Assembly (NCBI GenBank): GCA_038087875.1
Contig: CM075994.1
Location: forward strand, 9,860,001 to 9,924,000
DNA: 64,000 bases
Reading direction: 5' to 3'
From: Malacoraja senta
Lineage: Eukaryota
Part shown: in pieces, positions 5,756 through 51,628 of the stretch
Numbering within the stretch: position 1 is the first letter of the stretch
How the letters are laid out: every line of letters begins with the position of its first letter
Made by a program: the position numbers and the translations under genes
The notes under the pieces: model-generated
Database searches by the model: none
Told to the model about the DNA's origin: nothing
Seen by the model: only the letters and a program-made list of their open reading frames with translations

Positions 5756-5880
5756 ATAGACAATAGACAATAGGTGCAGGAGTAGGCCAATCGACCCTTC
5801 GAGCCAGCACCACCATTCAATGTGATTATGGCTGATCACCTCCAATCAGTACCCCGCTCCTGCCTTCTCCCCATATCCCC

Positions 5881-6425
5881 TGGTCTCCTAATCTGAGGAA
5901 AGACATTCTTGCCATGGAGGGAGTACAGAGAAGGTTCACCAGACTGATTCCTGGGATGTCAGGTCTTTCATATGAAGAAAGACTGGATAGACTCGGTTTG
6001 TACTCGCTAGAATTTAGAAGATTGAGGGAGGATCTTATAGAAAAGTACAACATTCTTAAGGGGTTGGACAGGCTAGATGCAGGAAGATTGTTCCCGATGT
6101 TGGGGAAGTCCAGAACAAGGGGTCACAGTTTAAGGATAAGGGGGAAATCTTTTAGAACCGAGATGAGGAAAACATTTTTCACACAGAGAGTGGTGAATCT
6201 CTGGAATTCTCTGCCACAGAAGGTAGTTGAGGCCAGTTCATTGGCTATATTTAAGAGGGAGTTAGATGTGGCCCTTGTGGCTAAAGGGATCAGGGGGTAT
6301 GGAGAGAAAGCAGGTACATGATACTGAGTTGGATGATCAGCCGTGATCATATTGAATGGCGGTGCAGGCTCGAAGGGCCGAATTGCCTACTCCTGCACCT
6401 ATTTTCTATGTTTCTATGTTTCTAT
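5881..6425 (+). mobile_element. CR1 3' fragment inserted into an older minus-strand CR1 (5760-5880 and 6426-6915); copy A only
   Basis: ORF 5914..6321 and (TTTCTATG)n tail. The host CR1 is uninterrupted at 34990-35585. Confidence 0.9.
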
Positions 6426-11946: not shown

Positions 11947-12021
11947 CGGTCACGTGACCGCCCATATTCACCAGCTCCACTCAGTGAAAATACTTTGAAC
12001 CAGGAAGTGGCGGATTTAAAA
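11947..12021 (+). promoter_or_regulatory. Candidate TRIM copy A proximal promoter: E-box palindrome and ETS-type site
   Basis: Perfect 14-bp palindrome CGGTCACGTGACCG at 11947-11960 and CAGGAAGTG at 12001-12009, just upstream of the ATG. Both are conserved in copy B. Confidence 0.45.
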
Positions 12022-15000
12022 ATGGCTTTGAAACAGCAGGTCGAGAGTTTAACCGAGGAGGTAGTTTGTCCCGTCTGCCTGGATTTCTTCACCGATCCGG
12101 TGTCACTGGAGTGTGGGCACAACTTCTGCCGCTCCTGTATCACACAGAGTTGGGACAGGGAGGGGAGAAACTCCTGCCCGGAATGTAGAGAGGAGTTTAC
12201 AGACCGCACCCTCAGGGTGAATCGGGCCTTGGCGAGACTGTCTGAGAAAGCTCGAGCACTGAGCCTGAATCTCAAAGCGAAGGAAAGTAAACTTCACTGC
12301 GAGAAACATCAGGAAGAACTGAAGCTGTTTTGTGAAACGGACAAGAAACCGATCTGTTTGGTTTCTGCAGCTGGGCGGGAACACAAGTCTCACAACTTTA
12401 TTCCGGTAGATGAAGCTGTTGAAATCTACAAGGTAAAACAAAATGAACTTTGATCACATCATTGTGTAATCTTTTCTTTAATGTCTGATATTTTTATTCT
12501 CTGATATGAAACCCAACCCCAGGAACAGGTGAAATCTACTTTCGAATCTCTCACAGAAAATAAATCAGAGATCGAGCAAATGGAGGAGAAACAGAAAGAG
12601 AGCATTTCTGGAGTTCAGGTGAGGCTTTTTACTATCGATTTAATTATTTTGTGTAGATTTAATCCCGATGATGCGTGTAATAATGGGCACCTCTATAGAG
12701 CTCAGTAGTCGAGGACCCGAGATCTTGGGAGCGGCTGGGCAGCCAAGGACCTTACTCCCTGGAGCGCAGGAGTCTGAAGAATGGTCTATTACAGGTGTAT
12801 AATATCACGAAATGTTAGGGTGAATACTCAGTCTTTTAACCTGAGTAGGGCGTCCAGCATGCGAGGGCATAGGTTTAAGGTAAGAGGGTACATATTTAAT
12901 ACGGACATTAAGGGCAACTTTGTTAGTGGGTCTATGGAATGAGCTACCAGGGGGAGGTAGTTGACTCAGGTACCATAACAATATTTAAAAGATATTTGAA
13001 CAATTTCGTGGAGAGAAAATTTTAGCACCAGGTGGGCCAAATAGCGCAGATTGGACGGCTTGGTCGGTATCTAACACCCCTTGCTGTATGACTCCATGAA
13101 ATCTGTCATTCTAAGTGGTGCTGCTGTCTGCTAGTTCTGGTGACCTGGTTCTGTCCAGTGAGGGTTAACGGACACATGAAATTGAATAGGTTGCAGGGAA
13201 TTGTACTGGGGAAATGGGAATGATGTGATTGTACATTACTTTCACCAAATATTTCAGAATTATTAACACGAGCTCTTGAATTGCCAAGGTAATGAAAACT
13301 ATGGATTAAATACAGGTAAATGGAATTAGTGCAGATACTTACAGAGCCCAGCATGGGCATGTTGATCCGAAGGGCCTATTTCTGCACTTCAGGACTCGAG
13401 ATTCAGTAGCCAAATGTTATCATCCATGTTATGAGAAAACACAGCAGAGTGACATAATATATTGATTCTCATCTTTCATCTGACAGGAAGCGTCACGCAA
13501 CCTTCAGTCACAGACCACATCCCAGTTTGCTGAACTGCACCAGATTCTCACTGAGAAAGAGCAGCGCGCACTCGGAAATATCCGGGAAGATGAGGCGAAG
13601 ATTGTAAAAACAATGGAGAACAATCTTCTAGAGATACAAAAGAATTTAAATTCCATTCAGGAGGAACTCTCAAAGTTACAGGAACAGATAGACCACAAGG
13701 ATGGCATGATATTTCTGAAGGTGAGGGGTTACACTACAGTTTGGTGAAACGAAAGTGCACAGTCACAAAATGGCGGGTTACATTTCTGAAATAAATTCTG
13801 CATTTGAATGAATGAATGAATGAATGAATACGTTTATTGTCATTGCACAATACTGTGCAACGAAATTCCATTGCATCTCCTCCGGTTAAAAAATACAAAC
13901 ACGACAACCATTGACACATATGTACACTTATTAGTAAAAATAATAAATAAGTATTTAAAAACAATTTTAAAAGAATGTTGCATTTCTTGGAATTACATTT
14001 TGCTTCCCCAGTGTTCTCTGTTGGAATTAAGTTATTTTATCGCACATGGGTAGAAACTATTTTTTAGTCTACCTTCAGAGACCCGAATCGCCTCCCAGAG
14101 GGTAGCAGAGTGAAAAGGTGGTTGGCAGGGTGGGATGTGTCCTGCTTGATGTTTATGGCTCGGCGCAAGCATCGGGCCCTATATATATCATCCAAGAAGG
14201 GCAGTTGAGCGTTTGTGATGCTCTGTGCAGTTTTTATAACTCTCTGCAGCGCTCTCCTCTCAGCCACAGTGCAGCTAGCAAACCACACCAGGATGCCATA
14301 GGAGAGGATACTTTCCACGGCGCATCGGTAGAAGGACAGCAGCAGCGGCTGTGAGACGTTTGCTCTCCGCAGAGACCTCAGGAAATACAGCCGCTGCTGT
14401 GACTTCTTCACGAGAGTGACGGTGTTCATTTACCATTTGAGGTCCTGGGAGATGTTTATTCCCAGGAATTTAAAGCCAGTGACTCTCTCCACTATGTCTC
14501 CATTGATGTATAGAGGAGCAGGTTCCTCTCTCCTCTTCCTCCTGAAGTCAACGACCAGTTCTTTTGTCTTTGATGGGTTGAGTACCAGGTTGTTTTTGGT
14601 ACACCAGGCAGTCAGTTTTTGGACTTCATCTCTCTGGGCAGACTCGTCGTTGTTGTGTATCAGTCCCACTACATTCGTGTCGTCCGCAAACTTGATGATC
14701 CTGTTTGTACTGTGTGTTGGTGTGCAGTCATAAGTGTATATTGTATACAAGTTGGGACTCAGCACACAACCTTGTGGCGCTCCTGTGCTGAGCGTCAGGA
14801 CTGGGGAGTAATTGGACCCCATCCTGACAGTCTGTGGGCGATCTGTTAAGAGGTCCTTAATCCATCTGCATGTGTTTGTATTGACACCCAGATCAGACAG
14901 TTTGTCCACCATTCTGCTGGGGATGATTGTATTAAATGCAGAACTAAAGTCTACAAATAACATCCTCACATATGAGCCAGGACGCTCCAGATGTGTCAGT

Positions 15001-18000
15001 GCGGAATGTAGAGCTATGTTGATGGCATCTTCCGTTGACCTATTTGCTCTATATGCAAACTGATGCTGATCCAGGGTGGATGGGAGTGAGGACATAATGT
15101 GGGCCAGGACCAGCCGTTCAAAACACTTCATCACAGTTGAAGTGAGAGCAACAGGTCTGTAGTCATTCAGGCTGGTAATGGATGTTTTTTTGGGTACAGG
15201 CACGTTAGTAGCAGTCTTGAAGCATTTAGGGACAGTGCACGTTGACAGAGAGAGGTTAAAGATGTCCCTAAGAACCTCCGCTAACTGGTCTGCACAGTCC
15301 CACAATACTCTCCCTGGGATGCCATCTGGGCCAGCAGCCTTCCTGGGGTTGACCCTGCGGAGTGCTCTTCTGACATCCTCCGTACTCACAGTGAGTGCCA
15401 GGTCGTCAGTGCTGGGTGCGGCTGCAGGTGGAGACTCCGCCTCATTCAGCTCAAAACGGGCGAAAAAGTGGTTGAGCTCCTCAGCTAGCGAGTTGTTATT
15501 GCTGCTGATGGTCGGCCCCCCCCTTGCCCTTGTAGTTGGTAAGTTGCTGAATGCCCTGCCAGACACGCCGAGGGTCCCTCTCGGCGTGTCTCGGCGTGAA
15601 TTTACCAGTAATTCAGTACTGGGTCAATGTTCCGTCTGTTCCATCTACTCACCACATCCGACAATAATGGCCCAAATTCCAGGAATCCTCATGCATTTAT
15701 CCCACTTCAACTTAAATTTATCTGCAATATTGTCTTCAGGCCACCCTGTGAGTTCCACGTTCTGTTTACTGCATTTCTTGTTAAAGTTATTAAAGGCCAT
15801 CTTATACTTCAGCTTTGATTTTTGGACTCCCCACAAGTAGTGATAATATTTCCAACCCCCACCCATTTAAATCCACCGCTGATCTTAAAATATTCCATCC
15901 CATTATCTCTGACATCTTCTCCAAATAAAATCCCACGACCTGCCAGGTCTTACTCGTAAGTTGCATACTCGCAGTTATTTTCATCGACATTCCTAATGCT
16001 TTCCCCCGTGTTCGATGTATCTACGACAATATCCACTTTCTGTCTGTGTGACAGCGGCAAAGAGTTGGGAAATGGGAATTTTCAGAGGGTTTTTTGTAGC
16101 AATTTGGTGAAATACCCGCTGTCGGGATCATGATCCATCTCAGTCTATTGAGATTTGTGTTTTATTTATTTCAGGAAGAAGCTGGTCGCAAGAGGAGGTA
16201 GGACATGCTTTTGACTGAAACAATGTATGTTTTTATAGTACAGCTGAGAAAAACAGCTAATGCTCAGTTTCTAACCAGCCGTAAAATATTTGCAGGGTTA
16301 GTGATGATTCCAAATCAATGTTGGTTGTAGATGGCGCGATGCCCATTGAAAAGTATGATCGCACCTTTTTCTACTACATGGCATTGAGAGAAACATCTGA
16401 TCTCATCAACCAAGGTAAAACTAATACATTTCCCATTGTTCTTTTTTAAGACATCTTTATGCAATACTTATATGTGAAGATTAATGGTATTAATGGACCC
16501 TGGGGGAAGCATCACAGAGACAGATAGCGAAGTTTGTTTGCACTTGAACAAATCCTTGTTCCTGGGAGAATGGGTTTGCTGTGCTGGGTGAAATTGTGTA
16601 GACTAGGCCTGTGTAGTCGAGAGTTCAGGTGTATTAGCGGAGATCTCAGTGAAACACAAAGTCCTTACAGGGCTCAGTGGGCTGGATGCAGGGAGGATGT
16701 TTCCCCTGTCTGAGGGGTCTGGAGTCAGCAGAAACCCTCTCAGAATGTGGGCTGGACCATTTAGGACAGAGACATTACTGCACGCAGAGACTGGGCAACC
16801 TTTGGAATTCCCTGCACCGATGGCTGTGGATAATCAGTCATGCTGTGCTCTTGGTGCCAGAGAGCCATGGTTATACATTACAGAGTCAGGCCCTTCAGCC
16901 CATCGAGTCCATGTTCACCTTTTTTCCCAGCCACACAAATCCCATTTCCCCACATTAGATCTGTATTATTCTACACCTCGTTTGCTACATCGCAATGCCT
17001 CTTAGATGTAGTGATTACATCTGATTCCACCACCTCCTCTGGTAAAATATTCCAGGTATTAACAACTCTTTGTGTGAAGAAAACTGCGTCCTCCAGTATT
17101 GATATACCTGCATGAGAATAAGGTTTCGATGATCTATCCTGTGTCCTGCTGCAGACTTTGACAGACTTCCTTGGTATCCACAACATTACCCGTTCTACAC
17201 AAACTTACAAGTCACACCTCCTACATTCACATCCAAGCCATGAAAATATAAAATAAACAGCAAAGGTTGCAGCACCGATCTCTGCTGCACACCACCAGTC
17301 ACAGACCTCCAGGCAGCAAAATCATCCTTCTACCGCTACCTTCTACCTCCAACCACCAAGTCAATTGTAGGTCCATTTTACCAACTCGTCTTGGATCCCA
17401 CCTGCATTCGATTTCTAGACCAGCCTTACATGCAAAACATTGTCAAGTCACTCAGTGAAGTTCATATATTGCTTCACAATGACATCAGAATGTTCTTGGT
17501 TGTACCGACGCACCAATTCCACTCTCTAGTAAAGAAAGCAAGTAAACAGTAGCAGATGGCCTCGCCCGTCCAGTCCACTCCCGTTCAGTATGATCACGCA
17601 ACTCCACCCCACATGTCTACATCCTCTGTAACCACCTCTAGTTACCACTCACACCCATCTCCTCATCTTCCAATCTGCCTCTCCCTCGCCATCTACTGGC
17701 AAGATACTTAAATACCGCCTTATTTCTCCATCTCCACCCGCAATGTCTCGTTCATCCTCACTTTCCGCATTCGTTTTCCCCGTTCGCACGCCTCGCCCCC
17801 TCCCGTTCCCGATAACCCGCGGAATTCCCCCTCTCCTGGCCGGTTGACAAACTCCAGGAAAGATGCCTGTTGTCCATTCGATGTGGTTGGGGTGAAACCC
17901 CGGGTAAGGTTTCAGTTGTCCGCCCGCTTGTGCCTGTGCCCGAGTCTCCCCCCGACCCCCGGGGACTCTCTGATTCTCTGCTTCTCCCCCCCCCAGTCTC

Positions 18001-18529
18001 CGTCACGCTGGATGTGGAAACAGCGCATGCGCAGCTCGAGGTGTCTGAGGATCGGAAGAGGGTGAGACGGACCGGGACCCGGAGTAGTCTCCCTGACACC
18101 TGGAAGACGTTTACATACTGGGAGTGTGTGCTGGGATCGGAGGGATTCACATCGGGGAGACATTACTGGGAGGTGGAGGTGGCGGGGAGTCGGTACTGGA
18201 GTCTGGGAGTCGCCGCAGAGTCTGTGGAGAGGAAAGGAGAGGACGAGCTGACCCCGGAGACTGGAGTCTGGAGGATCGGGCAGGATGATGGCGAGTTTCA
18301 AGCATTCACCTCCCCTCCATTCCCTCTCCCCGCCCGTCCCATCCCCGGGAGGGTGGGAGTTTATCTCAGTTACGAGTCCGGGACAGTTTCATTTTACGAC
18401 GCGGACACCAAGTCCCATCTCCACACCTTCACTGGGAATAAGTTCACGGAGAAACTTTATCCTTTATTCGAGACTTGGGATGTAAACGAGTGGCTGAGAA
18501 TGTGCTCCGGTTCCGCTCCGGGTGTATAA
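12022..18529 (+). CDS. TRIM E3 ligase (RING, B-box2, coiled coil, PRY/SPRY B30.2; RFP/TRIM27/TRIM39-like), copy A, 6 coding exons, 471 aa
   Basis: Exons 12022-12432, 12523-12618, 13487-13720, 16175-16197, 16296-16414, 17997-18529, all with GT-AG boundaries. Lengths 411+96+234+23+119+533 = 1416 nt, in frame with no stop. RING CPVC..CGHNFC..C..CPEC, B-box CEKH..FCETD..H..H, B30.2 VTLDVETAH..GRHYWEVEV..GVYLSYESG. The 96/234/23-nt middle exons are typical of class IV TRIM genes. Confidence 0.93.
13806..15599 (-). mobile_element. Rex1/Babar-clade LINE, 5'-truncated, in TRIM copy A intron 3
   Basis: RT ORF 14430..15566 (DYRPVALTS..MKCFERLV, DFSSAFNTI, PQGCVLSP, KFADDT) plus frameshifted 14064..14429. 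(TTCA)n tail, ATTT duplicated at both ends, empty site at ~43596. Confidence 0.92.
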
Positions 18530-19054: not shown

Positions 19055-19214
19055 TGTTGTGTATTTGGTACTTGGAACTGACTTTAAATAACACTCAGAC
19101 ACGGGAGTAAAACTAACAAGCTTCTTAATTCCAGGACGTCACCTTGAGTCTCTCCTGCACATGCGTACCACTGCGCAAGGCATCAAATATGTTAATTACA
19201 TTACATACCTAACA
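19055..19214 (-). repeat. Putative 3' LTR (160 bp), copy A
   Basis: Begins TGTTAGG immediately after the PPT and ends ..ACACAACA, giving TGTT/AACA inverted termini. Same length in copy B (47053-47212). Confidence 0.65.
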
Positions 19215-19479
19215 CTCCTCCCCCTTTAACTTGGAGGCAGGTAACACCATTTCTATTACATACACAGCACTCCTCCCCTTTTAACTCAATTTCACCTTCA
19301 CGGTATATGCTCTTTACCTAACATATAATTGATTAATATCGGTTGCAAAATTGTATTATTACTGTCATCTTACAATACATCCTCATAACTGGAATAATCA
19401 TATCTAAACTTAGCACTTATACTTTTTTCATTCCACGCATCTTCCTTAAACAAAATATATTATCCCTTGCTTTATGTGT

Positions 19480-19960
19480 TATCCTTTTCTGTTCCCTTAT
19501 GTGTAAATTGCGCACTCTTTTTAATCGCTCCAACTCTGCCTGTATCTCTGCCTCTTCCCATTTTTAAATGTCCAAATCTAATTTTGCAGATTTTTTCCTG
19601 TTGCTGTTCATTATTTGTAGGTGGCAGCTGACACATGGCTGCAGGTTTTCGTTTTGCTAGCAGCTTCCGTTGTCGCTCAATTTCCTCGCGCTGCATATGT
19701 ATCTGCTCTTGCTGTTTAATGAGATTCTGCAATGCATAACCATTTGTCCATTGCTCAGTGAAGGAGGCTCCACACTGGACTATAGTGAAGTGCCTAGTCG
19801 CATTCTGTCCTGCATACTTTTGTCTCGACCGACAAGCCTCTCTTCTTTAGACTTTTCTATTAGCAGCTTTTTACTCATTATCACACATTTATTTAACCGT
19901 TCTTTGTATCGTTTAAGCCTTTTCTGTTGTTCATCTATTTGTCTTCTTAAGCCACATTTC
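19480..19960 (-). pseudogene. TLK2: Captured intronless Tousled-like kinase (TLK2-like) coiled-coil fragment, copy A
   Basis: [75 protein letters not shown] and, after a frameshift, [22 protein letters not shown] closely match my recollection of TLK1/2. RDKS, LIKQQ, REEI and AM.Q.PP favour TLK2. No kinase domain and no introns. Confidence 0.85.
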
Positions 19961-19964
19961 TGGT

Positions 19965-21030
19965 TCTTCATCAAGAAGTAGGATCTATATTGTCTTTGCA
20001 ATATAACTGTGGCTTTGATTTGTGCTCTGTATAGTTTTCTTGCTTCATAAGCAAGGTAGTGAGACTGCACTACAATTTCTGTATAATTCAGTTTGAGGAA
20101 GTCTTTCCTATATCTGTTAAGCCTTTTGTATCGTTTAAGCCTTTTCTGGTGTGCATCTATTTGTCTTCTTAAGTCTTTCCTATACCAACTCATACGGAGT
20201 ACTGACTGTACTTTTATAGTAGCCCCCTTTTGCTTAACCCACTGCCTAACCACCATACCCTTGTAGGCAGCCTGAATGGTAATGGTTGCATACCCATTGA
20301 CTGATATTGCACAAACTGGGAATGCCCTATTTTGCATGCTTTGTACCATCTCTGGATCGAAATGACTGCTTGTCGCATAGCTCTATAGCGTACCCTTGAT
20401 CGGTAACCACAGTATGCAGCTTGCAGCTTGCAGAGTGACTACAGCCGCCTTTTGCATCAAGAATGATTTCTTGCAATGCACATCTTTATGAATGAATTAA
20501 TATGGCGTGCTGCCTTGATTTTCTCAACCAATTCTCTGGCTTTAATCCCGCGGTAGAAGGGCTGAATACAAACCACTGCTTTTCTCAAACTATTATAATG
20601 TCGCACTTGGACATCTCTTATCTGGCAAGCTCTGTATCGTTGCTGTACCGCAATGGCAGACCAGCGTAGTTTCTTGAAATACTGACGCTGTTTATGCATC
20701 TGATAATAAGTCTGTATGACCTTGGCAGACTGCAATTGCTATCGAACACCCATTCCTCGGTAGGCAGCCTGAAGCAGCACAACATTGCTGCGTACCTTCA
20801 TGTAAGTCTTGCGATCACTTTCCATTTGAAGATGTGCCGTATAATGGGTTTGTTCTATTATAGCTGCCAATCTCATTGCCCTGTATGGACGGTATACTCT
20901 GTGCATTCTAAATGCTGCTTGTATTACCGTTGCTGCCTTCTGTTTGTTCCGGATCTCTCTCCGTACCTTCATACCCCTGAATGCAGCTTGAATAGTTATG
21001 GGTTGCCCTCTGGATGGCAATGTTCCTTTG
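19965..21030 (-). pseudogene. ASPM: Captured ASPM-like IQ-repeat fragment, copy A
   Basis: Run of ~23-aa IQ motifs ([78 protein letters not shown]) with the periodicity of the ASPM IQ array. Contains stops and frameshifts. No CH or ASH domains and no flanking exons. Confidence 0.8.
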
Positions 21031-21219
21031 CACTTGACTTTTGTCCACTTGACTTTTGTCCCTTTGCCCTTGACCTTTTTCCACTTGACTTTTGTCCCTT
21101 TGCACTTGACTTTTGTCCACTTGGCCTTTATCCACTTGACCTTTTCAGTTTGCACTTGACTTTTGTCCTTTGAGGGACTCTCTGCCCTCTTTAGTTCAGG
21201 CTCCTTGCCTCTGAGTGCC

Positions 21220-21479
21220 CTTGGAGGTTTTGGCGAGAAATGAGCCATTAATGCCTCCTTACACTCCTCGTACGTTTTATCCGTGGGCTTTGCTGGCCGC
21301 TGTAACGTACGTAAGGTGTGATAACCCTCTCTTCCTGAGCCTAATATGAACCATGCTCTCTTCTTCTCCTCTGCAGTGATATCATTGGAAATGAAAGAAG
21401 CCTCCAAGACTTCAGTCCATTTCTCAAAATTACACCCAGAATCTAACTGGGGCAACTTTCCTACAATTTGAAAAGCCAT
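21220..21479 (-). pseudogene. Ty3/Gypsy-type Gag N-terminal domain fragment (copy B 49325-49579)
   Basis: First ~86 aa of ORF 20739..21479 match the recalled pattern W..LE..F..N.I...KKRA.....G...Y..L..L..P.KP.DK.Y.E....L..HF.PK of vertebrate Gypsy Gag. Confidence 0.75.
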
Positions 21480-21654
21480 GTTACCCTGTTGCTATTCAGG
21501 TGCACTATCTTCTGTTCGCTCACTGTGTTTTCTGCCCTGAACGTAATCCTTTTACATTCTAAGAAATTATCCAGCCCACTGACTATTACTAGTTCTTATA
21601 ATAATAGATTTATACTAATAAACCAGCATTTCCTGTTAATAGCCAACTAGAACA

Positions 21655-23542
21655 TTTTTTTATTAATATTTATTTTATTAGAAGCAATTGTACAAGAATA
21701 AAGCAATCGGCATAACAATTATACAATATTCGTACAGCTTCAGTTTTAACATTTTATAAATTGATACATGAAACGGAAAAAAAAGTAAAAAAGGAAAGAA
21801 TGAAGAAAAAGAAGAAAGATACAAAAAAGAGAGAAGAAAAGAACCCTGAACTGCCAAAGTTCAGGCGGGAAGAGAAAAAAAAAAGAGAAAAGTAAAAATA
21901 CAAAAAACGGAGATATGTTCCACCATCCTTCCCTTCCCTGCTCACCCATCCCAAGCATCGTTTTTTAATTTGTGTTCAACCATTCTATTGTTGAAGAAAT
22001 TCAGTGATGAAGGAGACCATGTTTTGGAGAATTGGTCTGATTTATCAGCCAAAACAAGCCTAATTTTTTCTAAGTGTAGTGTCTCGGTCATTTCAGTAAT
22101 CCACATCTTCACTGTGGGAACTGTTATCTTTTTCCAGAATTTGAGTATAAGTTTTACGCAGTTATTAAGCCGTAGTCAAGGAAACGTATTTGGAATGTCG
22201 TTAACTTAGAACAGCCCTCTGACATTCCTAAAATTATTCGTTTTGCATCTGACTCCAGTTGAATTTTAAGAGTTTTAGAGATGATATCGAATATTCCCAT
22301 CCAGAAATTTTGTATTTTTATACAGGATGCGAAGGAATGGGTAAAGGTAGCTTCTTGGAGGTGACATTTATCACAGATAGAGGAGACAGTTGGGAAGATC
22401 TTATTCAATTTAGTCTTTGAATAGTATAGCCTGTGCAATATTTTGAATTGTATCAGGCAATGCCTGACATTTAAAGAACAGTAACGTATGGAAAGTAGGC
22501 TTTCCTCCCATATATCTTTTGAAATAGATAAACCCAACTCGTCTTCCCAAGCTCACCTATACATCTCAGAAGGTGGGTATCAGCATTTAAAAGAGTGTTA
22601 TAAATGTAAGTTATCAACTTACTTGTATCGGCATGTCTATTCAGACAATCATCTAATATATCTGGACCCATAAAAGGACAATCTTGTGTGAATGTTTTCA
22701 CATAATCTCGGATTTGAAGGTATCTAAAAAGATCGTTTGCTTTCAAATGATATTTCTCCTGTAGTTCTTGAAAAGAAAAGAGAGTCCCCTTCTTATAGAG
22801 GTCTCCCACAGTATTATTTCCTAGGTTTTTTCATTGAACAAACGCCCTATCTAAAGTAGACGGTTTAAAGGAGGGATTGTTAGCAATAGGCAGAAGGAGA
22901 GACAAATTTCTCAGTTTAAGACTTAATTTCAGCTGTTTCCAGATACGTAGGGTACTGTGTATTATCGGATTTTGCTCATACGTTGACTTATTCAGATGTA
23001 TTGGAGATAGAAGAATCGAGCCTATGTTAAAAGGCAAACAATCTTCCCTCTCCATTTTTAACCAATTTACCTGTTGTCATGTGTCGTACAACCAGAAGAT
23101 TATATTTTTAATGTTAGTCGCCCAGTAGAAGAAAAGAAAGTTAGGAAGAGCTAATCCTCCGTTTTCTTTGGATTTGCACAAATGTCTTTTATGTATTCTA
23201 TGGGTTTTGTAGCCCCAAATAAAGTTAGTGATAGTAGAATCAATTTTTTTGTTTAAACTCTTGGGGAGATATATTGATTGAAATAAATATAGGAGTTGCG
23301 GAAGGAAGATCATCTTTATGGCATTTACTCTACCTATAAGGGAAATAGGAAGTGTTTTCCAAAATTGAATGTTGGCAAATCGTTTAGTAATTAATGGTGG
23401 GAAATTTGTTTTAAATAGAGAGGAGTGTTTTCTCACGTAAACACCGAGATATCTAAACTTTCCTGTAACAATTCTGAAGGGAAATTTTTGGAATTGAGAA
23501 GGGTCTTGAGCTTTTATTGGCATAATTTCACTTTTATTCCAA
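21655..23542 (-). mobile_element. L1-clade LINE 3' portion, copy A
   Basis: ORF2 C-terminal motifs WNKSEI, F.YLG, GRVNAIKM..LP, GGLALPN, QFKILHRLY, C.KC..H; A-rich tail at 21655. Confidence 0.9.
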
Positions 23543-25476: not shown

Positions 25477-26389
25477 ATCAACAAATAACAAATAGTACAA
25501 ATAATATAGTATTTCATAGTTCAGAGCTTATTTGTTGTTTAATAGCCTGATGGCTGTCAGGAAGAAGCTGTTCCTCAATGTAGATGTGACAGTTTTCAGT
25601 TTACAAAAGTCGGACGTCACTCCAGAATTCGGGCACAAGTCAGACAGTCCACAAGCAGTGATTCAGTCTGTCAATCCAGAGGCCATGAGTGAGTCAGTCA
25701 GTCAGTCCAGAGACCGTGAGTTAGTCCCAAGGCAGTGAGCGAGTCCAGAGGCCATGAGTAGGTTGCTCACCGCACCCCCCCCCTCCACTGACATCCCCCA
25801 CCTCAAGAAGCTGCCCTCGGCCTGGCTATAGGATGCCTCCCCTCCTGAAGCCGGCCCCATCCCCCGCTGCAGGACACCCCCCTCCCTCATCAGCCCACGA
25901 GAGCCCCCGCCTGAAGCTGTCCCCCTCCCTCAGCTGCAGGACGTTTGCCACCCTCCACCCCACCCCGACAGCCCCCGCCTCAAAAACATGTTTTGCACAA
26001 ATTCTTCAGTGAGTCCAGCGGATTGAGAATTACAACAAACCAATGGAATTCTTTAATTTGCCACAACCAAGAAATGGAAGGATGCACCTTGATGATGACA
26101 ATCCAGAATTGCTGCCGGAATTGCAATTTGTTGAGGAGAATGGGCCTCTGCTGAATGCTGAGCAGCGAGCAGTGTATGCACTCAATTTAACAGAAGGTGA
26201 AGACATTCTCCTTCAGCAGACCCAATTCCCCATTCAATCAAGTTTTGCTATGACGATCCATAAAGCACAAGGATAAACAATGCAGGTGTTGATCTACCTC
26301 GACAAACCAGTATTTCAGCATGGAAAACTCTATGTGTCTCTTAGCCGAGGAAAGATGAAAGATGAAGGGAAATGTCAACGTTTTCCTGA

Positions 26390-28517
26390 AGGATGTAACA
26401 TCGACCAAGAATGTTGTCATTAAAAGCGTGCTTCATTGAATGATGACTTCTGAGATCAATTCTCAGATTTTCTTTGTTAAAATTTGACCGCCGAATCTCT
26501 CTATATTTAAATTGTCTCTTTTTTTTATCAACAGCAAAGAGACATAAATATGCAGTGAGCAGCAACAAGAGACAACAAGAAAGAACTTAATAATTCTCAT
26601 CTTTAACATTTAAATTGTTCTTATATTTTAAGAGTCATTCACATTTTAAACTTTAATAAATTCTTTTTCCACTTTTCATGCCTGTGTTCTTCATCACAAT
26701 GCGAACCTAATGGCAGGAATGGCTGGTCTGTGGGAGAGCCACAGAGAGTGCATGGGGGGAAGTTGTGGGGAGATGGACTGAATGCGTGGCGGGGAGGGGA
26801 ATGGCAAGTAGCAGAGTGGAGCAGGGGTGACTGATTGAACTGCCAGCATACCAGCCGTGAGTGACTGCACTGCCAGCCCACCAGCCATGAGTAAGTGAAC
26901 TGCCAGCCCACCAGCCGTGAGTGACTGCACTGCCAGCCCACCAGCCATGAGTAAGTGAACTGCCAGCCCACCAGCCGTAAGTGACTGAACTGCCAGCCCA
27001 ATAATCCATTCAGGCCACCCTCTCCCCCTTCTCTCTCCCAGTCTGTCACCTGTTTTGGGCACAATTTCTGGCAGTTTCTCAGCTGCTAGCCTGCCTGGTC
27101 TGAGTGACTGTACTGCCAGGCCTCAGTGACTGAGCTGCCTTGCCTCAGTGACTGAGCTGCCAGCCCAAGAATCCATTCGGCCCACAATGTCCATACTGGC
27201 CCTCTGGAAACCAGCCCCTTCGGCCAACAACACCCATACTAGCGCAACAGTATCCTCCGCCCCCCCCACTGGCCAGCAATATTGGAATTAGTGGAGAGGT
27301 GGAATATTGCATTGGGTGACCAGCCCTCCCGTGTGATGCTGGGACCCAACAGGTCCCACTTAGTCGAGTAATCTTATATGTTTCAATAAGATACCCTCTC
27401 ATCCTTCTAAACTCCAAATAGCCCGGTTACATCCACTGGTTAGCGACGGGTGGTGCAGCGGTAGAGTTGCTGCCTCACCGTGCTGGAGTCTCGGGTTCGA
27501 TCCCCAGTACTGCTATGAGAATGCAGGGTGATTTGGACAGGTTGGGGGAGTGGGAAGATGCATGGCAGATGCAGTTTAATGCGGATAAATGTGAGGTTAT
27601 CCACTTTGGTAGCAAAAACAGGAAGGCAGATTACTATCTAAATGGTGTCAAGTTGGGAAAAAGGGAAGTACAACGGGATCTGGGTGTCCTTGTACATCAG
27701 TCTATGAAAGTAAGCATGCAGGTACAGCAGGCAGTGAAGAAAGCGAATGGCATGTTGACCTTTATAACAAGAGGAGCAACGAGGAATATAGGAACAAAGA
27801 GGTCCTTCTGCAGTTGTACAGGGCCCTAGTGAGACCACACCTGGAGTATTGTGTGCAGTTTTAGTCCCCTAATTTGAGGAAGGACATTCTTGCTATTGAG
27901 GGTTAATTCCCGGGATGGCGGGACTGTCATATGCTGAGAGAATGGAGCAGCTGGGCTTGTACACTCTGGAGTTTAGAAGGTTGAGAGGGGCCCTTATTGA
28001 AACATATAAGATTGTTAAGGGTTTGGACATGCTAGAGGCAGGAAACATGTTCCCGATTTTGGGGGAGTCCCGAACCAGGGGCCACAGTTTAAGAATAAGG
28101 AGTAAGTCATTTAGAACGGAGACGAGGAAACACTTTTTCACACAGAGAGTGGTGAGTCTGTGGAATTCTCTGCCTCAGAGGGTGGTGGAGGTAGGTTCAC
28201 TGGATGCTTTCAAGAGAGAGCTAGATAGGGCTCTTGAAGATAGCAGAGTCAGTGGATATGGGGAGAAGGCAGGAACGGGGTACTGATTGGGGATGTTCAG
28301 CCATGATCACATTGAGTGGCGGTGCTGGCTCGAAGGGTCGAATGGCCTACTCCTGCACCTACTCTCTACTGTCTATTGTATGTTGTCTGCTGTCTGTTGT
28401 CTGTTGTCTGTTGCCTGTGAAACGGTTTCCGCACTGTATCTCTAAATTGAACTAATCTGCCTTTTGACTCCAACTCTTCCACAGGTTTGTAGGTTAATTG
28501 GCTTCTGCAAATTGTCC

Positions 28518-28558
<41 letters not shown>

Positions 28559-31500
28559 GTGTAGGATAGTGTTGGTGTGCGCGGACTCGATGGGCCTGTT
28601 GGTTGGCGCGGACTCGATGGGCCTGTTTCCACGCCCGATCTCGAAAGTCTAAAGTAAGTCTCTAAAGGTCCCTGTCACGGTTTATTCCGAACAGCTCCGA
28701 CACAGACACTGTGATTTACGGACTGTTCCCAGGGACGCATTCAGAGACCGACATCGAGTGCTGCTGGAAGGATCATCAACTCGGTGAAAGACGCTCTTTG
28801 GTCTGCCCGAACGTTGTTCACCACCCAGCGGAGCGAGATGTCCGTCAGGGAATGTTGCCGACTGGCCCGCTGCAGACTGCAGGAGTACGTGCTGAGGGAC
28901 GCACTGAAGCTCGGTGCAGCCCACGCCAAGGCTCGGTGGGGCAGGACCACAATCTAGGGTCCTTCCGCTGCTGGACATCGGGGGCAGGGTGTGGTGGAGA
29001 CGCCCCCAAAATAAAGGAAGGGGGCCACATGAGTGGCAAGGGTGCGGGATAAATGAGTGCAATGTGTGTAAACAGTATTAGAAACATAGAAAATAGGTGC
29101 TGGTGGAGGCCATTCGGCCCTTTGAGCTGGCACCGCCATTCATTGTGATCATGGCTGATCGTCCCCAATCAACAACCCGTGCCTGCCTTCTCCCCAAATC
29201 CCTTGATACCACTAGCCCCTAGAGCTCCATCTAACTCTCTCTTAAATCCATCCAGTGATTTGGCCTTCACAGCCCCCTGTGGCAGGGAATTCCACTAATT
29301 CACAACTCTCTGGGTGAAAAGTTTTTTCTCACCTCAGTCTTAAATGGCTTCCCCTTTACTTTAAGACTGTGGCCCCTGGTTCTGGATTCGCCCAACATTG
29401 GGAACATTTTTCCTGCATCTAGCTTGTCGAGTCCTTTTACAATTTTATATGTTTCTATAAGATCTCCACTCATCCTAATCTCCAGTGAATACAAGCCTAG
29501 TCTTTTCAATCTTTCCACAGATGACAGTCCCGCCATCCCAGGAATCAATCTCGTGAACCTACGCTGCACTGCCTCAATCACAAGGGTGTCCTTCCTCAAA
29601 TTAGGAGACCAAAACTGTAAGCAATACTCCAGATGTGGTCTCACCAGAGCCCTAAACAACTGCAGAAGAACCTCTTCACTCCTATACTGAAATCCTCTTG
29701 TTATGAAGGCCAACATTCCATTAGCTTTCTTCACTGCCTGCTGTACCTGCACGCCAACTTTCAGTGATCAGTGTACAAGGACACACAGGTCTCGCTGCAC
29801 CTCCCCCTTACCTAACCTAACCTGACCATTGAATGTATAGCCTCCGAGAATGTAGGATGAATTATTATTTTTTGCACAGTTCCTGTGTTTTATATATTGA
29901 TTACTTGAATAAAGTCTATTTTGATTTTTTTTTTTAAAGTAACTCTATCTCCGCGGGTCTCTGTTAACATGGGACGACACGACAGGCTGGGTGAAGAAGA
30001 TTTGAACGATACCCTTGAATATCTAACTGACAACATCCAGGTCGATCGCCCCCCTGTCTCCGAATCCAACCCGTGAATCTCTGTTGGTGAATCCCGTATC
30101 AGCGGAATAATCCTTCGCCAATTTGTCATCACTTCTTTTTGGTAAATTAATTTTAAAAATGAGTTGGTGAAAATCTCTCTTATTTGGTTTGGAGGCTTGA
30201 ATTTCCCAGATCTGAAACCGAGTTTCCCCCCCACCAGGAAGCCAGTTAAAGCTGGGGGTATCTGGTGGTACTATGGTAGTAGACGTTTATACATCGACGA
30301 GACCAAGCGTAGGCTTGGCGATCGCTTCACCCAACACGTCCGCTCGGTTCGCATTAACCAACCTGATATCCCGGTGGCTCAGCACTTCAACTCCCACTCC
30401 CATTCTGAATCCGACCTTTCTGTCCTGGGCCTCCTCCATGACCAGAGTGAGTCCCACCCCAAATTGGAGGAGCAGCACCTCATATTTCGCTTGGGCAGTT
30501 TACACCCCAGCGGTATGAACATTGACTTCTCCAATTTCAGGTAGTCCTTGCTTTCTCCTACTTTCCCCTCCCCTTCCCAGCTCTCCCACAGCCCACTCTC
30601 TCCACCTCTTCCTTTCTTCTTCCCGTCGCCCCCCCCCCCCCATCAGTCTGACCCAAAACGACAATAGAACATAGGTGCAGGAGTAGGCCATTCGGCCCTT
30701 CGAGGATGTAACATCGACCAAGAATGTTGTCATTAAAAGCGTGCTTCATTGAATGATGACTTCTGACATCAATTCTCAGATTTTCTTTGTTAAAATTTGA
30801 CCGCCGAATCTCTCTATATTTAAATTGTCTCTTTTTTTTATCAACAGCAAAGAGACATAAATATGCAGTGAGCAGCAACAAGAGACAACAAGAAAGAACT
30901 TAATAATTCTCATCTTTAACATTTAAATTGTTCTTATATTTTAAGAGTCATTCACATTTTAAACTTTAATAAATCCTTTTTCCACTTTTCATGCCTGTGT
31001 GTTCTTCATCACAATGCGAACCTAATGGCAGGAATGGCTGGTCTGTGGGAGAGCCACAGAGAGTGCATGGGGGGAACTTGTGGGGAGATGGACTGAATGC
31101 GTGGCGGGGAGGGGAATGGCAAGTAGCAGAGTGGAGCAGGGGTGACTGAGTGAACTGCCAGCACACCAGCCGTGAGTGACTGCACTGCCAGCCCACCAGC
31201 CATGAGTAAGTGAACTGCCAGCCCACCAGCTGTGAGTGACTGCACTGCCAGCCCACCAGCCGTGAGTAAGTGAACTGCCAGCCCACCAGCCGTAAGTGAC
31301 TGAACTGCCAGCCCAATAATCCATTCAGGCCACCCTCTCCCCCTTCTCTCTCCCAGTCTGTCACCTGTTTTGGGCACAATTTCTGGCAGTTTCTCAGCTG
31401 CCAGCCTGCCTGGTCTGAGTGACTGTACTGCCAGGCCTCAGTGACTGAGCTGCCTTGCCTCAGTGACTGAGCTGCCAGCCCAAGAATCCATTCGGCCCAC

Positions 31501-32860
31501 AATGTCCATACTGGCCCTCTGGAAACCAGCCCCTTCGGCCAACAACACCCATACTAGAGCAACAGTATCCTCCCCCCCCCCCCCACTGGCCAGCAATATT
31601 GGAATTAGTGGAGAGGTGGAATATTGCATTGGGTGACCAGCCCTCCCGTGTGATGCTGGGACCCAACAGGTCCCACTTAGTCGAGTAATCTTATATGTTT
31701 CAATAAGATTCCCTCTCATCCTTCTAAACTCCAAATAGCCCGGTTACATCCACTGGTTAGCGACGGGTGGTGCAGCGGTAGAGTTGCTGCCTCACCGTGC
31801 TGGAGTCTCGGGTTCGATCCCCAGTACTGCTATGAGAATGCAGGGTGACCTGGACAGGTTGGGGGAGTGGGCAGATGCATGGCAGATGCAGTTTAATGCG
31901 GATAAATGTGAGGTTATCCACTTTGGTAGCAAAAACAGGAAGGCAGATTACTATCTAAATGGTGTCAAGTTGGGAAAAAGGGAAGTACAACGGGATCTGG
32001 GCGTCCTTGTACATCAGTCTATGAAAGTAAGCATGCAGGTACAGCAGGCAGTGAAGAAAGCGAATGGCATGTTGACCTTTATAACAAGAGGAGCAAAGAG
32101 GAATATAGGAACAAAGAGGTCCTTCTGCAGTTGTACAGGGCCCTAGTGAGACCACACCTGGAGTATTGTGTGCAGTTTTAGTCCCCTAATTTGAGGAAGG
32201 ACATTCTTGCTATTGAGGGTGTGCAGCGTAGGTTTACAAGGTTAATTCCCGGGATGGCGGGACTGTCATATGCTGAGAGAATGGAGCAGCTGGGCTTGTA
32301 CACTCTGGAGTTTAGAAGGTTGAGAGGGGCCCTTATTGAAACATATAAGATTGTTAAGGGTTTGGACATGCTAGAGGCAGGAAACATGTTCCCGATTTTG
32401 GGGGAGTCCCGAACCAGGGGCCACAGTTTAAGAATAAGGAGTAAGTCATTTAGAACGGAGACGAGGAAACACTTTTTCACACAGAGAGTGGTGAGTCTGT
32501 GGAATTCTCTGCCTCAGAGGGCGGTGGAGGTAGGTTCACTGGATGCTTTCAAGAGAGAGCTAGATAGGGCTCTTGAAGATAGCAGAGTCAGTGGATATGG
32601 GGAGAAGGCAGGAACGGGGTACTGATTGGGGATGTTCAGCCATGATCACATTGAGTGGCGGTGCTGGCTCGAAGGGTCGAATGGCCTACTCCTGCACCTA
32701 CTCTCTACTGTCTATTGTATGTTGTCTGCTGTCTGTTGTCTGTTGTCTGTTGCCTGTGAAACGGTTTCCGCACTGTATCTCTAAATTGAACTAATCTGCC
32801 TTTTGACTCCAACTCTTCCACAGGTTTGTAGGTTAATTGGCTTCTGCAAATTGTCCCGTG

Positions 32861-32895
<35 letters not shown>

Positions 32896-46534: not shown

Positions 46535-47477
46535 AAGGGTCGGGTCCCGGGACCGGCGTCAGGAGCGGGGTTCAGGGGCTGTGGGGCAGAAACCCGGTGG
46601 ACAACAGGTCGGCGCTGAACGAACGGATACCATTTAATCCCCAAATTCCGCGTCGTGAAACCACAGTGAGCGGGGAAATAAAACCAGGGGGAATGTAAAT
46701 GTGGGAAGAGTGAAATAAACAGCAACTGAAATCAGAGCTGTCTGTCGATCCGTTCATTTTAAAGCGTTAACCGCGACCGGCAACGGAACAGAAATTACTT
46801 TTGTGAAAATATAAAGATTGAGACAATCGCCCTTCCCGCGGGTTCAGCAGGAGCCGCGGGCGTCGGGTCCTGAGCCCCGGGTCCTAAAGTCCGCCGACTC
46901 TGCAAATTCATATCGTGTTTGCAGCATTTGCTCTCCACAAACAGATTTGTTTTCCTCCGAACGGATCTTTGGAAGAATGGGTTCAAACCGGATTACCGGT
47001 TCCAGGTGGGAGCCCGTTGTCCTCAGGCTCTGCCTGTCTCTCTGTAGGATACTGTTGTGTATTTGGTACTTGGAACTGACTTTAAATAACACTCAGACAC
47101 GGGAGTAGAACTAACAAGCTTCTTAATTCCAGGACGCCATCTTGAATCTCTCCTGCACATGCGTACCATTGCGCAAGACATCAAGTATATTAATTACATT
47201 ACATACCTAACACTCCTCCCCCTTTAACTTGGAGGCAGGTAACACCATTTCTATTACATACACAGCACTCCTCCCCTTTTAACTCAATTTCACCTGCATG
47301 GTATATGCGCTTTACCTAACATATAATTGATTAATATCGGTTGCAAAATTGTATTATTACAGTCATCTTACAATACATCCTCATATCTGTAATAATCATA
47401 TCTAAACTTAGCACTTATACTTTTTTCATTCCACTCATCTTCCTTAAACAAAATACATTATCCCTTGCTTTATGTGT

Positions 47478-47955
47478 TATCCTTTTCCGTTCCCTTATGT
47501 GTAAATTGCGCATTCTTTCGAATTGCTCTATCTCTGCCTGTATCTCTGCCTCTTCCCATTTTTAAATGTCCTAATCTAATTTTGCAGATTTTTTCCTGTT
47601 CCTGTTCATTATTTGTAGGTGGCAGCTGACACATGGCTGCAGGTTTTCGTTTTGCTAGCAGCTTCCGTTGTCACTCAATTTCCTCGCGCTGCGTATATAT
47701 CTGCTCTTGCTGTTTAATGAGATTCCGCAATGCATAACCATTTGTCAATTGCTCAGTGAAGGAGGCTCCATACTGGACTGTAGTGAAGTGTCCTAGTCGC
47801 AATCGGTGCTGCATACTTTTGTCTCGACCGACAAGCCTCTCTTCTTTAGACATTTCTATTAGCAGCTTTTTACTCATTATCACACATTTATTTAACCGTT
47901 CTTTGTATCGTTTAAGTCTTTTCTATTGTTCATCTATTTGTCTTAAGTCACATTT
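47478..47955 (-). pseudogene. TLK2: Captured TLK2-like coiled-coil fragment, copy B
   Basis: [48 protein letters not shown] (ORF 47671..47883) with premature stops. Confidence 0.85.
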
Positions 47956-47959
47956 CTGG

Positions 47960-49050
47960 TACTTCTTCAAGAAGTAGGATCTATATTGTCTTTGCATTAC
48001 AACAGTGACTTTGATTTGTGCTCTATATAGTTTTCTTGCTTCATAAGCAAGGTAGTGAGACTGCACAAAAATTGCTGTATAATTCAGTTTGAGGAAGTCT
48101 TTCCTATATCTTTTAACCCTTTTGTATCCTTTAAGCCTTTTCTGTTGTGCATCTATTTGTCTTCTTAAGTCATTCCTATACCAACTAATACGGAATACTG
48201 ACTGCACTTTTATAGTAGCCCTCTTTTGCTTAGCCCACTGCCTAACCACCATACCCTTGTAGGCAGCCTGAATGGTAATGGTTGCATAACCCATTGACTG
48301 ATATTGCACTAACTGGGAATGCCCTATTTTGCATGCTTTGTACCATCTTTGGATCAAAATGACTGCTTGTCACATAGCTCTGTAGCGTACCCTTGATCGG
48401 TAACCACAGTACGCAGCTTGCAGAGTGACTACAGCCGCCGTTTGCATCAAGAATGATTTCTTGTAATGCACATCTTTATGAATGAATTAATATGGCATGC
48501 TACCTTGATTTTCTCAACCAATTCTCTGTCTTTAATCCCGCGGTAGAAGGCCTGAATACAAACTACTGCTTTTCTCACTATTATAATGTCGCACTTGGAC
48601 ATCTCTTATCTGGCAAGCTCTGTATCGTTGCTGTACAGCAATGGCAGACCTGCGTAGTTTCTTGAAATACTGACGCTGTTTATGCATCTGATAATAAGTC
48701 TGTATGACCTTGGCAGATTTGTGCATGCACCGCAATTGCTTTCGAACACCCATTCCTCGGTAGGCAGCCTGAAGCAGCACAACACTGCTGCGTACCCTCA
48801 TGTAAGTCTTGCGATCACTTTCCATTTGACATTTGACATGGAATTTCCACTTCCATGTGCCCTATAATGGGTTTGTACTATTATAGCTGCCAATCTCATT
48901 GCCCTGTATGGACGGTATACTCTGTGTATTCTAAATGCTGCTTGTATTACCGTTGATGCCTTCTGTTTGTTCCGGATCTCTCGCCGTACCTTCATACACC
49001 TGAATGCAGCTGAATAGTTAGGGTTGCCCTCTGGATGGCAATGTTCCTTT
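47960..49050 (-). pseudogene. ASPM: Captured ASPM-like IQ-repeat fragment, copy B
   Basis: ORFs 48798..48995, 48532..48825 and 47923..48357 carry the same IQ motifs as copy A. Confidence 0.8.
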
Positions 49051-49754
49051 GCACTTGACTTTTGTCCACTTGACTTCTGTCCCTTTGCACTTGACCTTTG
49101 TCCACTTGACTTGTGTCCACTTGACTTGTGTCCACTTGACTTTTGTCCACTTGACTTTTGTCCCTTTGCCCTTGACCTTTTTCCACTTGACTTTTGTCCC
49201 TTTGCACTTGACTTTTGTCCACTTGACCTTTTTCCACTTGACTTTTGTCACTTTCCACTTGACTTTTGTCCTTTGAGGGACTCTCTGCCCTCTTTAGTTC
49301 AGGCTCCTTGCCTCTGGATGCCCTTGGAGGTTTTGGCGAGAAATGAGCCATTAATGCCTCCTTACACTCCTCGTACGTTTTATCCGTGGGCTTTGCTGGC
49401 CGCAGCAACGTACGTAAGGTGTGATAACCCTCTCTTCCTGAGCCTAATATGAACCATGCTCTCTTCTCCTCTAGAGTGATATCATTGGAAATGAAAGAAC
49501 CCTCCAAGACTTCAGTCCATTTCTCAAAATTACACCCAGAATCTAACTGGGGCAACTTTCCTACAATTTGAAAAGCCACGTTACCCTGTTGCTATTCAGG
49601 TGCACTATATTCTGTTCGCTCACTGTGTTTTCTGCCCTGAACGTAATCCTTTTACATTCTTAGAAATTATCCAGCCCACTGACTATTACTAATTCTTATA
49701 ATAATAGATTTATACTAATAAACCAACATTTCATGTTAATAGCCAACTAGAACA

Positions 49755-51628
49755 TTTTTTTTAAATATTTATTTTATTAGAAGCAATTGTACAAGAATAA
49801 AGCAATCGGCATAACAATTATACAATTTTCGTACAGCTTCAGTTTTAACATTTTATAAATTGATACATGAAACGGAAAAAAAAGTTAACAGGAAAGAATG
49901 AAGAAAAAGAAGAAAGATACAAAAAAGAGAGAAGAAAAGACCCCTGAACTGCCAAAGTTCAGGCGAGAAGAGAAAAACAAAGAGAAAAGGAAAAAAACAA
50001 AAAAAGGAGATATGTTGCACTATCCTTCCCTTCCCTGCTCACCCATCTCAAGCATCGGTTTTTAATTTGTGTTCAACCATTCTATTGTTGAAGAAATTCA
50101 GTGAAAGGAGACCATGTTTTGGAGAATTGGTCTGATTTATCAGCCAAAACAAGCCTATTTTTTTTCTAAATGTAGTGTCTAGGTCATTTCAGTAATCCAC
50201 ATCTTCACTGTGGGAACTGTTATCTTTGTCCAGAATTTGAGTATAAGTTTTTCGCAGTTATTAAGCCGTAGTCAAGGAAACGTCTTTGGAATGTCGTTAA
50301 CTTAGAACAGCCCTCTGACATTCCTAAGATTATTAGTTTTGCATCTGACTCCAGTTGAATTTTAAGTGTTTTAGAGATGATATCGAATATTCCCATCCAG
50401 AAATGTTGTATTTTTATACAGGATGCGAAGGAATGGGTTAAGGTAGCTTCTTGGAGGTGACATTTATCACAGATAGAGGAGACAGTTGGGAAGATCTTAT
50501 TCGATTTAGTCTTTGAATAGTATAGCCTGTGCAATATTTTGAATTGTATCAGGCAATGCCTGACATTTAAAGAACAGTAATGTATGTAAAGTAGGCTTTC
50601 CTCCCATATATCTTTTGAAATAGATAAACCCAACTAGTCTTCCCAAGTTCGCCTATACATCTCAGAAGGTGGGTATCAGCATTTAAAAGAGTGTTATAAA
50701 AGTAAGATATCAACTTACTTGTATCGGCATGTCTATTCAGACAATCGTCTAATCTATCTGGACCCATAAAAGGACAATCTTGTGTGTATGTTTTCACATA
50801 ATCTCGGATTTGAAGGTATCTAAAAAGATTGTTTGCTTTCAAATGATATTTCTCCTGTAGTTCTTGAAAATAAAAGAGAGTCCCCTTCTTATAGAGGTCT
50901 CCCACAGTATTAATTCCTAGGTTTTTCCATTGAACAAACACTCTATCTAAAGTAGACGGTTTAAACGAGGGATTGTTAGCAATAGGCAGAAGGAGAGACA
51001 AATTTCTCAGTTTAAGACTTAATTTCAGCTGTTTCCAGATACGCAGGGTACTGTGTATTATCGGATTTAGCTCATAAGTTGATTTATTCAGATGTATTGG
51101 AGATAGAAGAATCGAGCCTATGTTAAAAGGCAAACAATCTTCCCTCTCCATTTGTAACCAATTTACCTGTTGTCATGTGTCGTACAACCAGAAGATTATA
51201 TTTTTAATGTTAGTCGCCCCGTAGTAGAAAAGAAAATTAGGAAGAGCTAATCCTCCGTTTTCTTTGGATTTGCACAAATGTCTTTTATGTATTCTATGGG
51301 TTTTGTAGTCCCAAATGAAATTAATGATAGTAGAATCACATTTTTTTTTTAAACTTTTGGGGAGATATATCGGTATTGATTGAAATAAATATAGGAGTTG
51401 CGGAAGGAAGATCATCTTTACGGCATTTACTCTACCTATAAGGGAAATAGGAAGTGTTTTCCAAAATTGAATGTTGGCATATAGTTTAGTAATTAATGGT
51501 GGGAAATTTGTTTTAAATAGAGAGTGTTTCCTAGTCACGTAAACTCCGAGATATCTAAACTTTCTGAAGGGAAATTTTTGGAATTGAGGTCTTGAGCTTT
51601 TATTGGCATAATTTCACTTTTATTCCAA
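49755..51628 (-). mobile_element. L1-clade LINE 3' portion, copy B
   Basis: Colinear with 21655-23542 and has the same two end points. Confidence 0.9.

Follow-up and report, generated by a model that had tools for sequence, protein, structure and literature searches.

Acutely transforming retroviruses are defective and helper dependent, and carry gag-onc fusions in which host coding sequence replaces viral genes. Several LTR elements resemble the case described here. In the sections of Tan et al. 2016 (PMC5131818) drawn on here, partial mRNAs take the place of the internal ORFs that two LTRs enclose, the joints show microsimilarity, and at least two parental genes can join one chimera that is re-mobilised as a non-autonomous element. 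Maize Bs1, as covered in parts of PMC5131818 and PMC13317346, is an LTR element in which pieces of several host genes form one chimeric translated ORF, with secondary retroposition. Among vertebrate LTR elements, crocodilian ERVs captured KIT-ligand or nectin3 mRNA, multiplied and came under purifying selection, according to portions of PMC4299795 that also mention v-kit and src.

The family described here carries pieces of ASPM and TLK2 fused to the gag of a Gypsy element. It shares with the cases of Tan et al. the pattern of template switching, the replacement of ORFs and the microsimilarity at joints. However, the re-mobilised cases in the cited sections of PMC5131818 occupy few insertion sites, whereas the present family has more than 100 copies in successive subfamilies, is fused in frame to gag and shows signs of selection in its source lineage. 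Bs1 differs in belonging to a plant, in having three donors, one of them represented by an out-of-frame piece, and in its 1 to 5 copies per genome (PMC5131818, PMC13317346, both in part). The crocodilian ERVs are retroviruses rather than Gypsy elements, hold one whole gene each, either between pol and env or in place of env, and number nine and six copies in the portions of PMC4299795 cited; they are not two-gene gag fusions. Compared with gag-onc retroviruses, the skate family has no env or infection, has captured no catalytic domain and comes with no evidence of an effect on growth. The mechanism is thus already known (Bs1; Tan et al. 2016), and we did not find the scale and the history of this family in print; our literature search, with subscription journals and Repbase/Dfam outside its range, returned no report of it. 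What sets the family apart from Bs1 and the crocodilian ERVs is a two-gene, in-frame gag fusion in a large vertebrate family with a readable history. One protein model belongs to it: XP_055489032.1 of the little skate, titled "ASPM homolog isoform X1," has the gag N-terminus, the repeat linker and the IQ piece at 83 to 86% identity and ends within the IQ part, and its annotation speaks of an ASPM homolog without mention of gag. The homolog search with gag returned only this protein.

The window, by which we mean the whole 64,000-nucleotide stretch analyzed (G000:C18:9860001-9924000 of a 1.94-Gb genome), comes from a skate-like host, as the TLK2 exons of the genome mostly match skate TLK2 protein at 88 to 98%. 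A cluster of TRIM genes (RING/B-box and PRY-SPRY exons) fills the window, in tandem at 11947-18529 and 41766-46534, and LINE remnants are abundant. LINE pieces and 30-nt minisatellites make up a unit of about 4.3 to 4.9 kb that is present three times (812-5882 and 25775-35109), the last two in tandem at 98% identity. The window holds a 5′-truncated family copy, copy A, and a segmental duplicate of it, copy B. Copy A stands tail to tail with the PRY-SPRY exon of a TRIM gene (17816..18529, plus strand), about 0.5 kb behind it. Copy B (47053..49758, minus strand) was duplicated along with its TRIM unit; it is not an independent insertion, because 92 to 94% identity extends over the element and both flanks. 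The same insertion is found in at least six other TRIM units, cut there at 20599 by a different LINE-like piece (L025-L030), and it is thus older than part of the expansion of the TRIM cluster.

Copy A runs on the minus strand over 19055..21658, as do all its parts given below, and has a sharp 3′ end at 19055 that is common to the family. Dispersed copies continue past 21658, and full two-LTR copies mostly measure 3.7 to 4.8 kb; the 5′ LTR and the long leader are missing here, with 21480..21658 as the remnant of a leader that spans about 1 to 2 kb in full copies. An ORF extends from stop to stop over 20739..21491, with its ATG at 21479. The first 85 codons (21225..21479) share 66% identity with gag from a parent family that carries pol, in agreement with the Gag N-terminus read in the preliminary description. 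Atlas assigned this piece to DUF7041/Retrotrans_gag at 0.90 to 0.96; Pfam alone gave a weak match (DUF7083, E 0.12) and none to PF23309 anywhere, and the predicted structure had a pLDDT of 65.5 and drew no clear match in a fold search. It is probably the N-terminal capsid domain. A gag spacer follows (21173..21224), which in the parent precedes the zinc knuckles; the 348 nt of gag before the spacer and both knuckles behind it are missing from the window copy. Next comes a tandem array of 15/21/36-nt repeats (21021..21172), previously described as a repeat linker, which is amplified ASPM sequence: the ASPM piece opens with a 21-nt stretch from which the array grew.

The first part of the ASPM piece (20176..21020) corresponds to about residues 2600-2880 of stingray ASPM. 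Its IQ motifs match Pfam PF00612 (E 7e-11 and 5e-9), it is 63% identical to stingray ASPM over residues 2601-2841 (E 1e-96), and it is very basic, with a pI of 11.5. In a 72-nt internal insertion (20104..20175) that marks later subfamilies, the beginning of the TLK2 piece is present a second time, as a short TLK2 piece at 20125-20175. The second part of the ASPM piece (19960..20103) reaches about residue 2930; across copies, the piece covers about residues 2580-2930. The TLK2 piece proper (19475..19959) consists of five host exons from the coiled-coil region, with no kinase domain. It is 87 to 95% identical in nucleotides to the host exons at G000:C10:14380646-14388588, it matches PDB 5o0y (E 5e-28), and its best matches are chondrichthyan TLK2 proteins. 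It begins at residue 194 of skate TLK2 (P0002), which by our reading falls inside the first coiled coil. The ASPM-like and TLK2-like assignments of the preliminary description were thus both borne out, as was the in-frame joint between them, which lies within a second ORF, 19780..20382. The Gypsy 3′ untranslated region (19283..19474) starts at the parent's pol stop and is followed by a first polypurine tract (19270..19282). The tract and the TG..CA unit of 19055-19214 had been noticed before; a second tract (19215..19227), inside a long LTR form, adds to the 160-bp short form (19055..19214) a 215-bp form (19055..19269). These purine-tract units, two in number and in some copies three, are 55 nt apart (19215-19282 in the window). 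The occurrence of paired purine tracts with LTRs of about 160 and 216 bp in one family suggests alternative plus-strand priming.

The family is found at more than 100 places, given 49 matches in a DNA search of the genome (from 40 of 908 candidates) and 126 with an IQ query (from 150 of 460 candidates, about a dozen being a second match within one copy); this count is a lower bound and includes segmental and assembly duplicates. We examined 83 copies, picked from the best-scoring matches rather than at random. Sixty of them cover gag, ASPM and TLK2, 13 are without gag, 9 without TLK2 and 1 without both. Two LTRs in direct orientation, bounded by TG..CA, were present within the stretch fetched for 39 of the 83, and 30 of these 39 have an exact 5-bp target duplication together with the TG. 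Three LTR lengths predominate, about 160, 178 and 216 bp, and the shortest and longest of these fit the two purine tracts. A genomic tRNA has the complement of the primer site; ARAGORN called this tRNA as tRNA-Ser(GCT) at two of four loci, as Thr at one and not at all at one, and the match is shorter in one subfamily. On the features tested, the element is a non-autonomous member of Ty3/Gypsy. At L048/L077 (G000:C10:31742453), the 3′ LTR is followed by a primer site, a short leader start and then an ORF that we take to be tyrosine-recombinase-like, an arrangement that may be a tandem or nested insertion.

Distances between paired LTRs (K2P) range from 0.011 to 0.099, with means of 0.035 to 0.037 in the three larger groups; the ages of the subfamilies therefore overlap, and none seems very recent. 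If the rate is taken as 0.5 to 1 × 10^-9 per site per year, these means correspond to roughly 18 to 36 million years. Between 25 and 37% of the window's words are present in runs of seven organism labels, and these runs, together with the RefSeq model from Leucoraja erinacea (P0140 in our set), a gag-linker-IQ copy, indicate that the family is common to several species. Contigs of three runs that we guess to be RNA cover the element, but as these runs may hold DNA, they speak neither for nor against transcription.

A parent with pol is preserved in the same genome. In six basal copies, the gag N-terminus is separated from ASPM by two CCHC knuckles that the window copy lacks (Pfam zf-CCHC E 0.002, just short of the cutoff). 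A genome search with this stretch gave 92 matches; when 25 of these loci were read, 6 continued into ASPM, and the other 19 ran on into sequence of the parent type, in most cases with a protease motif. Parent and cargo-bearing family have matching LTR, leader and gag. The parent gag has an extra 348 nt relative to that of the window, Retrotrans_gag-like, and the parent pol is in Gypsy order (protease, reverse transcriptase, RNase H, integrase), while pol is missing from the family with the cargo. Six parent copies were read downstream and all are broken; no current helper was identified. Three neighboring Gypsy-like stretches considered as the parent were rejected. A near-identical fragment of knuckle-bearing parent gag also recurs in one fixed context on many small unplaced contigs (L145-L148 and similar), perhaps as part of a large tandem unit.

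The cargo, ASPM IQ piece and then TLK2 piece, stands in place of pol: it starts immediately after the zinc knuckles of gag and extends as far as the pol stop, and both pieces are in sense orientation and in frame with gag. The five exons of the TLK2 piece are joined precisely at AG/GT sites, with four exon joints crossed, which traces the piece to a spliced mRNA. Short similarities lie at all three joints: a 7-nt CCA(A/G)CAG just behind the second knuckle is common to parent gag and host-type ASPM, ASPM and TLK2 have TGTG in common where one gives way to the other, and the joint between TLK2 and the end of pol has an imperfect match of 12 to 13 nt at the parent's pol stop. The ASPM sides were read by eye on loose contig ends from runs of organisms B and I, in which host-type ASPM is present, because host ASPM was not found in the assembly with the Pfam ASH domain, fish ASPM, the lizard N-terminal part, the stingray IQ part or a short host-type pattern. 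Its lack is probably an assembly gap and does not amount to absence from the genome. Neither of two TLK2-less copies inspected resumes at the Gypsy 3′ end.

On these features, the family is also an LTR-mediated retrocopy, with internal ORFs replaced, microsimilarity at the joints and no L1 hallmarks. By the known model, a particle formed by the parent would have copackaged both mRNAs, with reverse transcriptase switching template three times at short similarities, from gag to ASPM, from ASPM to TLK2 and from TLK2 to the end of pol. Helper enzymes would then have copied the chimera in trans to more than 100 places, as they could have done because LTRs, primer site and purine tracts were retained. 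LINEs are plentiful in the window, and one could suppose instead that LINE-made processed copies of ASPM and TLK2 landed independently in an existing Gypsy copy. We give this next to no credence: the cargo is flanked by no poly(A) or separate target duplication, each piece is truncated on either side, pol is replaced rather than interrupted, and every one of the three joints shows microsimilarity. The core of the preliminary description, that a non-autonomous Ty3/Gypsy element took up two different mRNAs, survived the tests proposed there: the TLK2 piece crosses exon junctions, the LTRs are paired around the cargo in dispersed copies with 5-bp duplications, and neither cargo piece brought poly(A) or duplications of its own. 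We are in little doubt that a two-gene cargo was captured and spread.

A tree of the copies resolves successive subfamilies. Basal copies diverge from host TLK2 by 6.1% (n = 9), compared with 9.0% and 10.8% in others, and this closeness of the basal copies favors a single capture of TLK2 with serial divergence over repeated recapture. After the capture, 348 nt of mid-gag would have been lost, followed by the loss of both knuckles and tandem growth of the 21-nt ASPM unit into the linker. The 72-nt insertion carrying a copy of the element's own TLK2 start would have come third, and fourth several sets of distal TLK2 frameshifts relative to the host, with an earlier stop. This distal stop is common to 30 of 53 copies, 25 of which belong to a subfamily with a longer distal deletion. 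The large structural changes preserve the frame (348, 156 and 72 nt, and 21-nt units); some common in-frame indels are slippage at triplet or 21-nt repeats. Several copies (L059, L075, L096 and L105) form a sublineage in which the TLK2 match ends at nt 259 of the host mRNA and covers only the proximal coil region. Further internal duplications occur in the ASPM/TLK2 joint region, of 222 nt in L109 and of about 130 to 150 nt in L059, L060 and L111. The leader of later subfamilies (L034, oriented 3072-5040) is longer and GC rich; it has 18- and 34-nt repeats, long antisense stop-free frames and, about 350 nt past the primer site, another motif that resembles it.

The single-copy view of the reading frame required some revision. 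The frame from Gag to IQ in copy A is indeed free of stops, as the preliminary description stated, but two breaks that offset each other put the linker between them into a shifted frame, which makes the openness partly accidental. The frameshifts near 20460 and 19560, noted before as shared, are not family-wide: among the 83 copies, they proved common only to the window insertion and its segmental duplicates. To ask about the frame across the family, variants were tallied in gag, ASPM and the first 300 nt of TLK2 in 79 copies, with CpG-type changes removed and the duplicates winB, L003, L036 and L099 left out. Variants present in at least three copies comprised 76 silent, 145 missense and 1 stop change, compared with 181, 609 and 57 among singletons. 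Common variants were thus enriched for silent changes (p 1e-4) and depleted of stops (p <1e-4; 1 of 222, against 57 of 847 singletons), and two shifted frames, serving as the null, showed no effect (p 0.78 to 1.0). By segment, p was 0.002 for ASPM, 0.07 for TLK2 and 0.21, not significant, for gag. A stricter test confined to clade-marking variants, using tree tips only (69 copies, without the same four duplicates), pointed in the same direction, with a relative ratio of 0.67, but did not reach significance (p 0.11, and likewise p 0.11 for stops). It belongs to the first codon tests, in which distal TLK2 columns are read in other frames in some lineages and which the 79-copy test superseded; an early tally of TLK2 indels likewise gave way to a later one.

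Upstream of the common distal TLK2 stop, no stop codon marks a subfamily, and most recurrent stops there reflect CpG decay in scattered parts of the tree. Of 51 copies compared in distal TLK2, 33 have a net frame that is kept and 18 one that is lost; 27 of the 33 are stop-free, with amino acids that differ from those of TLK2. One off-frame host stop is changed to sense in all 35 copies that read it, but also in 10 of the 12 that leave it unread, and may thus be older than the frameshift. Stop-free frames in the 83 copies have a median of 281 and a maximum of 504 codons, so that none attains 600. Because common variants are silent enriched and nearly stop-free, the source copies quite probably kept a translated fusion frame, on moderate evidence of this kind, while inserted copies decay. 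Taken jointly, capture and selection on the fused frame are a likely combination.

Why would the frame have been kept? RNAs of gag with early stops are subject to decay. We tentatively favor, at something near an even chance, a need of the RNA for translation along the cargo, for its stability or for routing to assembly sites, with mild constraint on the product. Translation of the cargo would stabilize the element RNA or route it to assembly sites, and individual inserted copies would then decay neutrally. Offsetting frameshifts fit this model. In Ty1, RNA localization is coupled to translation; the same portions of PMC3945221 report no cis preference for Ty1 and HIV-1 Gag, which weakens a version based on packaging in cis. 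The product does not seem fully free, since missense changes are depleted too among common variants (145:76 against 609:181, about 1.8-fold, z about 3.5 by hand), which gives a role for the protein some weight. The fusion protein, predicted to combine a Gag N-terminus, a very basic IQ array that would bind calmodulin or RNA and part of the dimerizing coil of TLK, might be useful to element or host as a decoy, a substitute nucleocapsid or a germ cell growth factor like a transduced oncogene. Such a use would suit the high pI of the IQ part and the loss of the knuckles after ASPM was gained, as well as the first 300 nt of TLK2, where no frameshift is widely common. CC1 is required for TLK dimerization (PMC6023931, in the part cited), and purifying selection on captured genes is known from the crocodilian ERVs (PMC4299795, in part). 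However, the first coil is captured only in part, from residue 194 of P0002 by our placing of the boundary. Many amino acid changes relative to host TLK2 have spread through subfamilies, the distal coils are off-frame or deleted in later ones, and the 83 copies include no intact one and no single conserved locus, so that we regard a useful protein as a minority possibility; the decoy function put forward in the preliminary description is not supported so far. A bolder form of the idea, which we think doubtful, is that a Gypsy lineage assembled a novel gag-like protein out of host pieces, and that this protein actively promoted the spread of the family in the germ line of skates over millions of years. 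The IQ array and the part of the TLK2 coil would then have replaced the lost nucleocapsid and the C-terminal region of capsid, and spread would have gone through packaging of the element's own RNA or through calmodulin/TLK signaling.

The cargo could also be a neutral passenger, its in-frame joints owed to chance or to codon-periodic microsimilarity and the apparent constraint to slippage, recombination or sampling. The clade-restricted test and the choice of copies by best score leave room for this, and young LTR-made retrocopies in flies are often in frame, 14 of 17 in the sections of PMC5131818 cited. Against it, the effect is confined to the true frame, stops are far rarer among common than among singleton variants, and several independent large indels are multiples of three; we judge a passenger rather unlikely. 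Camouflage at the RNA level, in which small RNAs against the cargo would also strike ASPM and TLK2 and the family would be silenced less than its parent, seems more improbable still. Both donors are cell-cycle genes, as might suit such protection, and camouflage is proposed in the cited portion of PMC13317346 for plant elements with pieces of essential genes, but it does not predict a frame-specific depletion of stops and missense changes.

The capture of genes by LTR elements is commonly regarded as a matter of one or a few copies. In the present case, the parent, the first chimera and the later subfamilies are all preserved in one vertebrate genome. One practical caution is that RefSeq calls these copies an "ASPM homolog" and that they crowd searches for the real gene. 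The number of copies permits selection on a newly fused frame to be measured during its phase as a mobile parasite, and whether captured host coding sequence helps a defective retroelement, through its RNA or through its protein, can now be tested.
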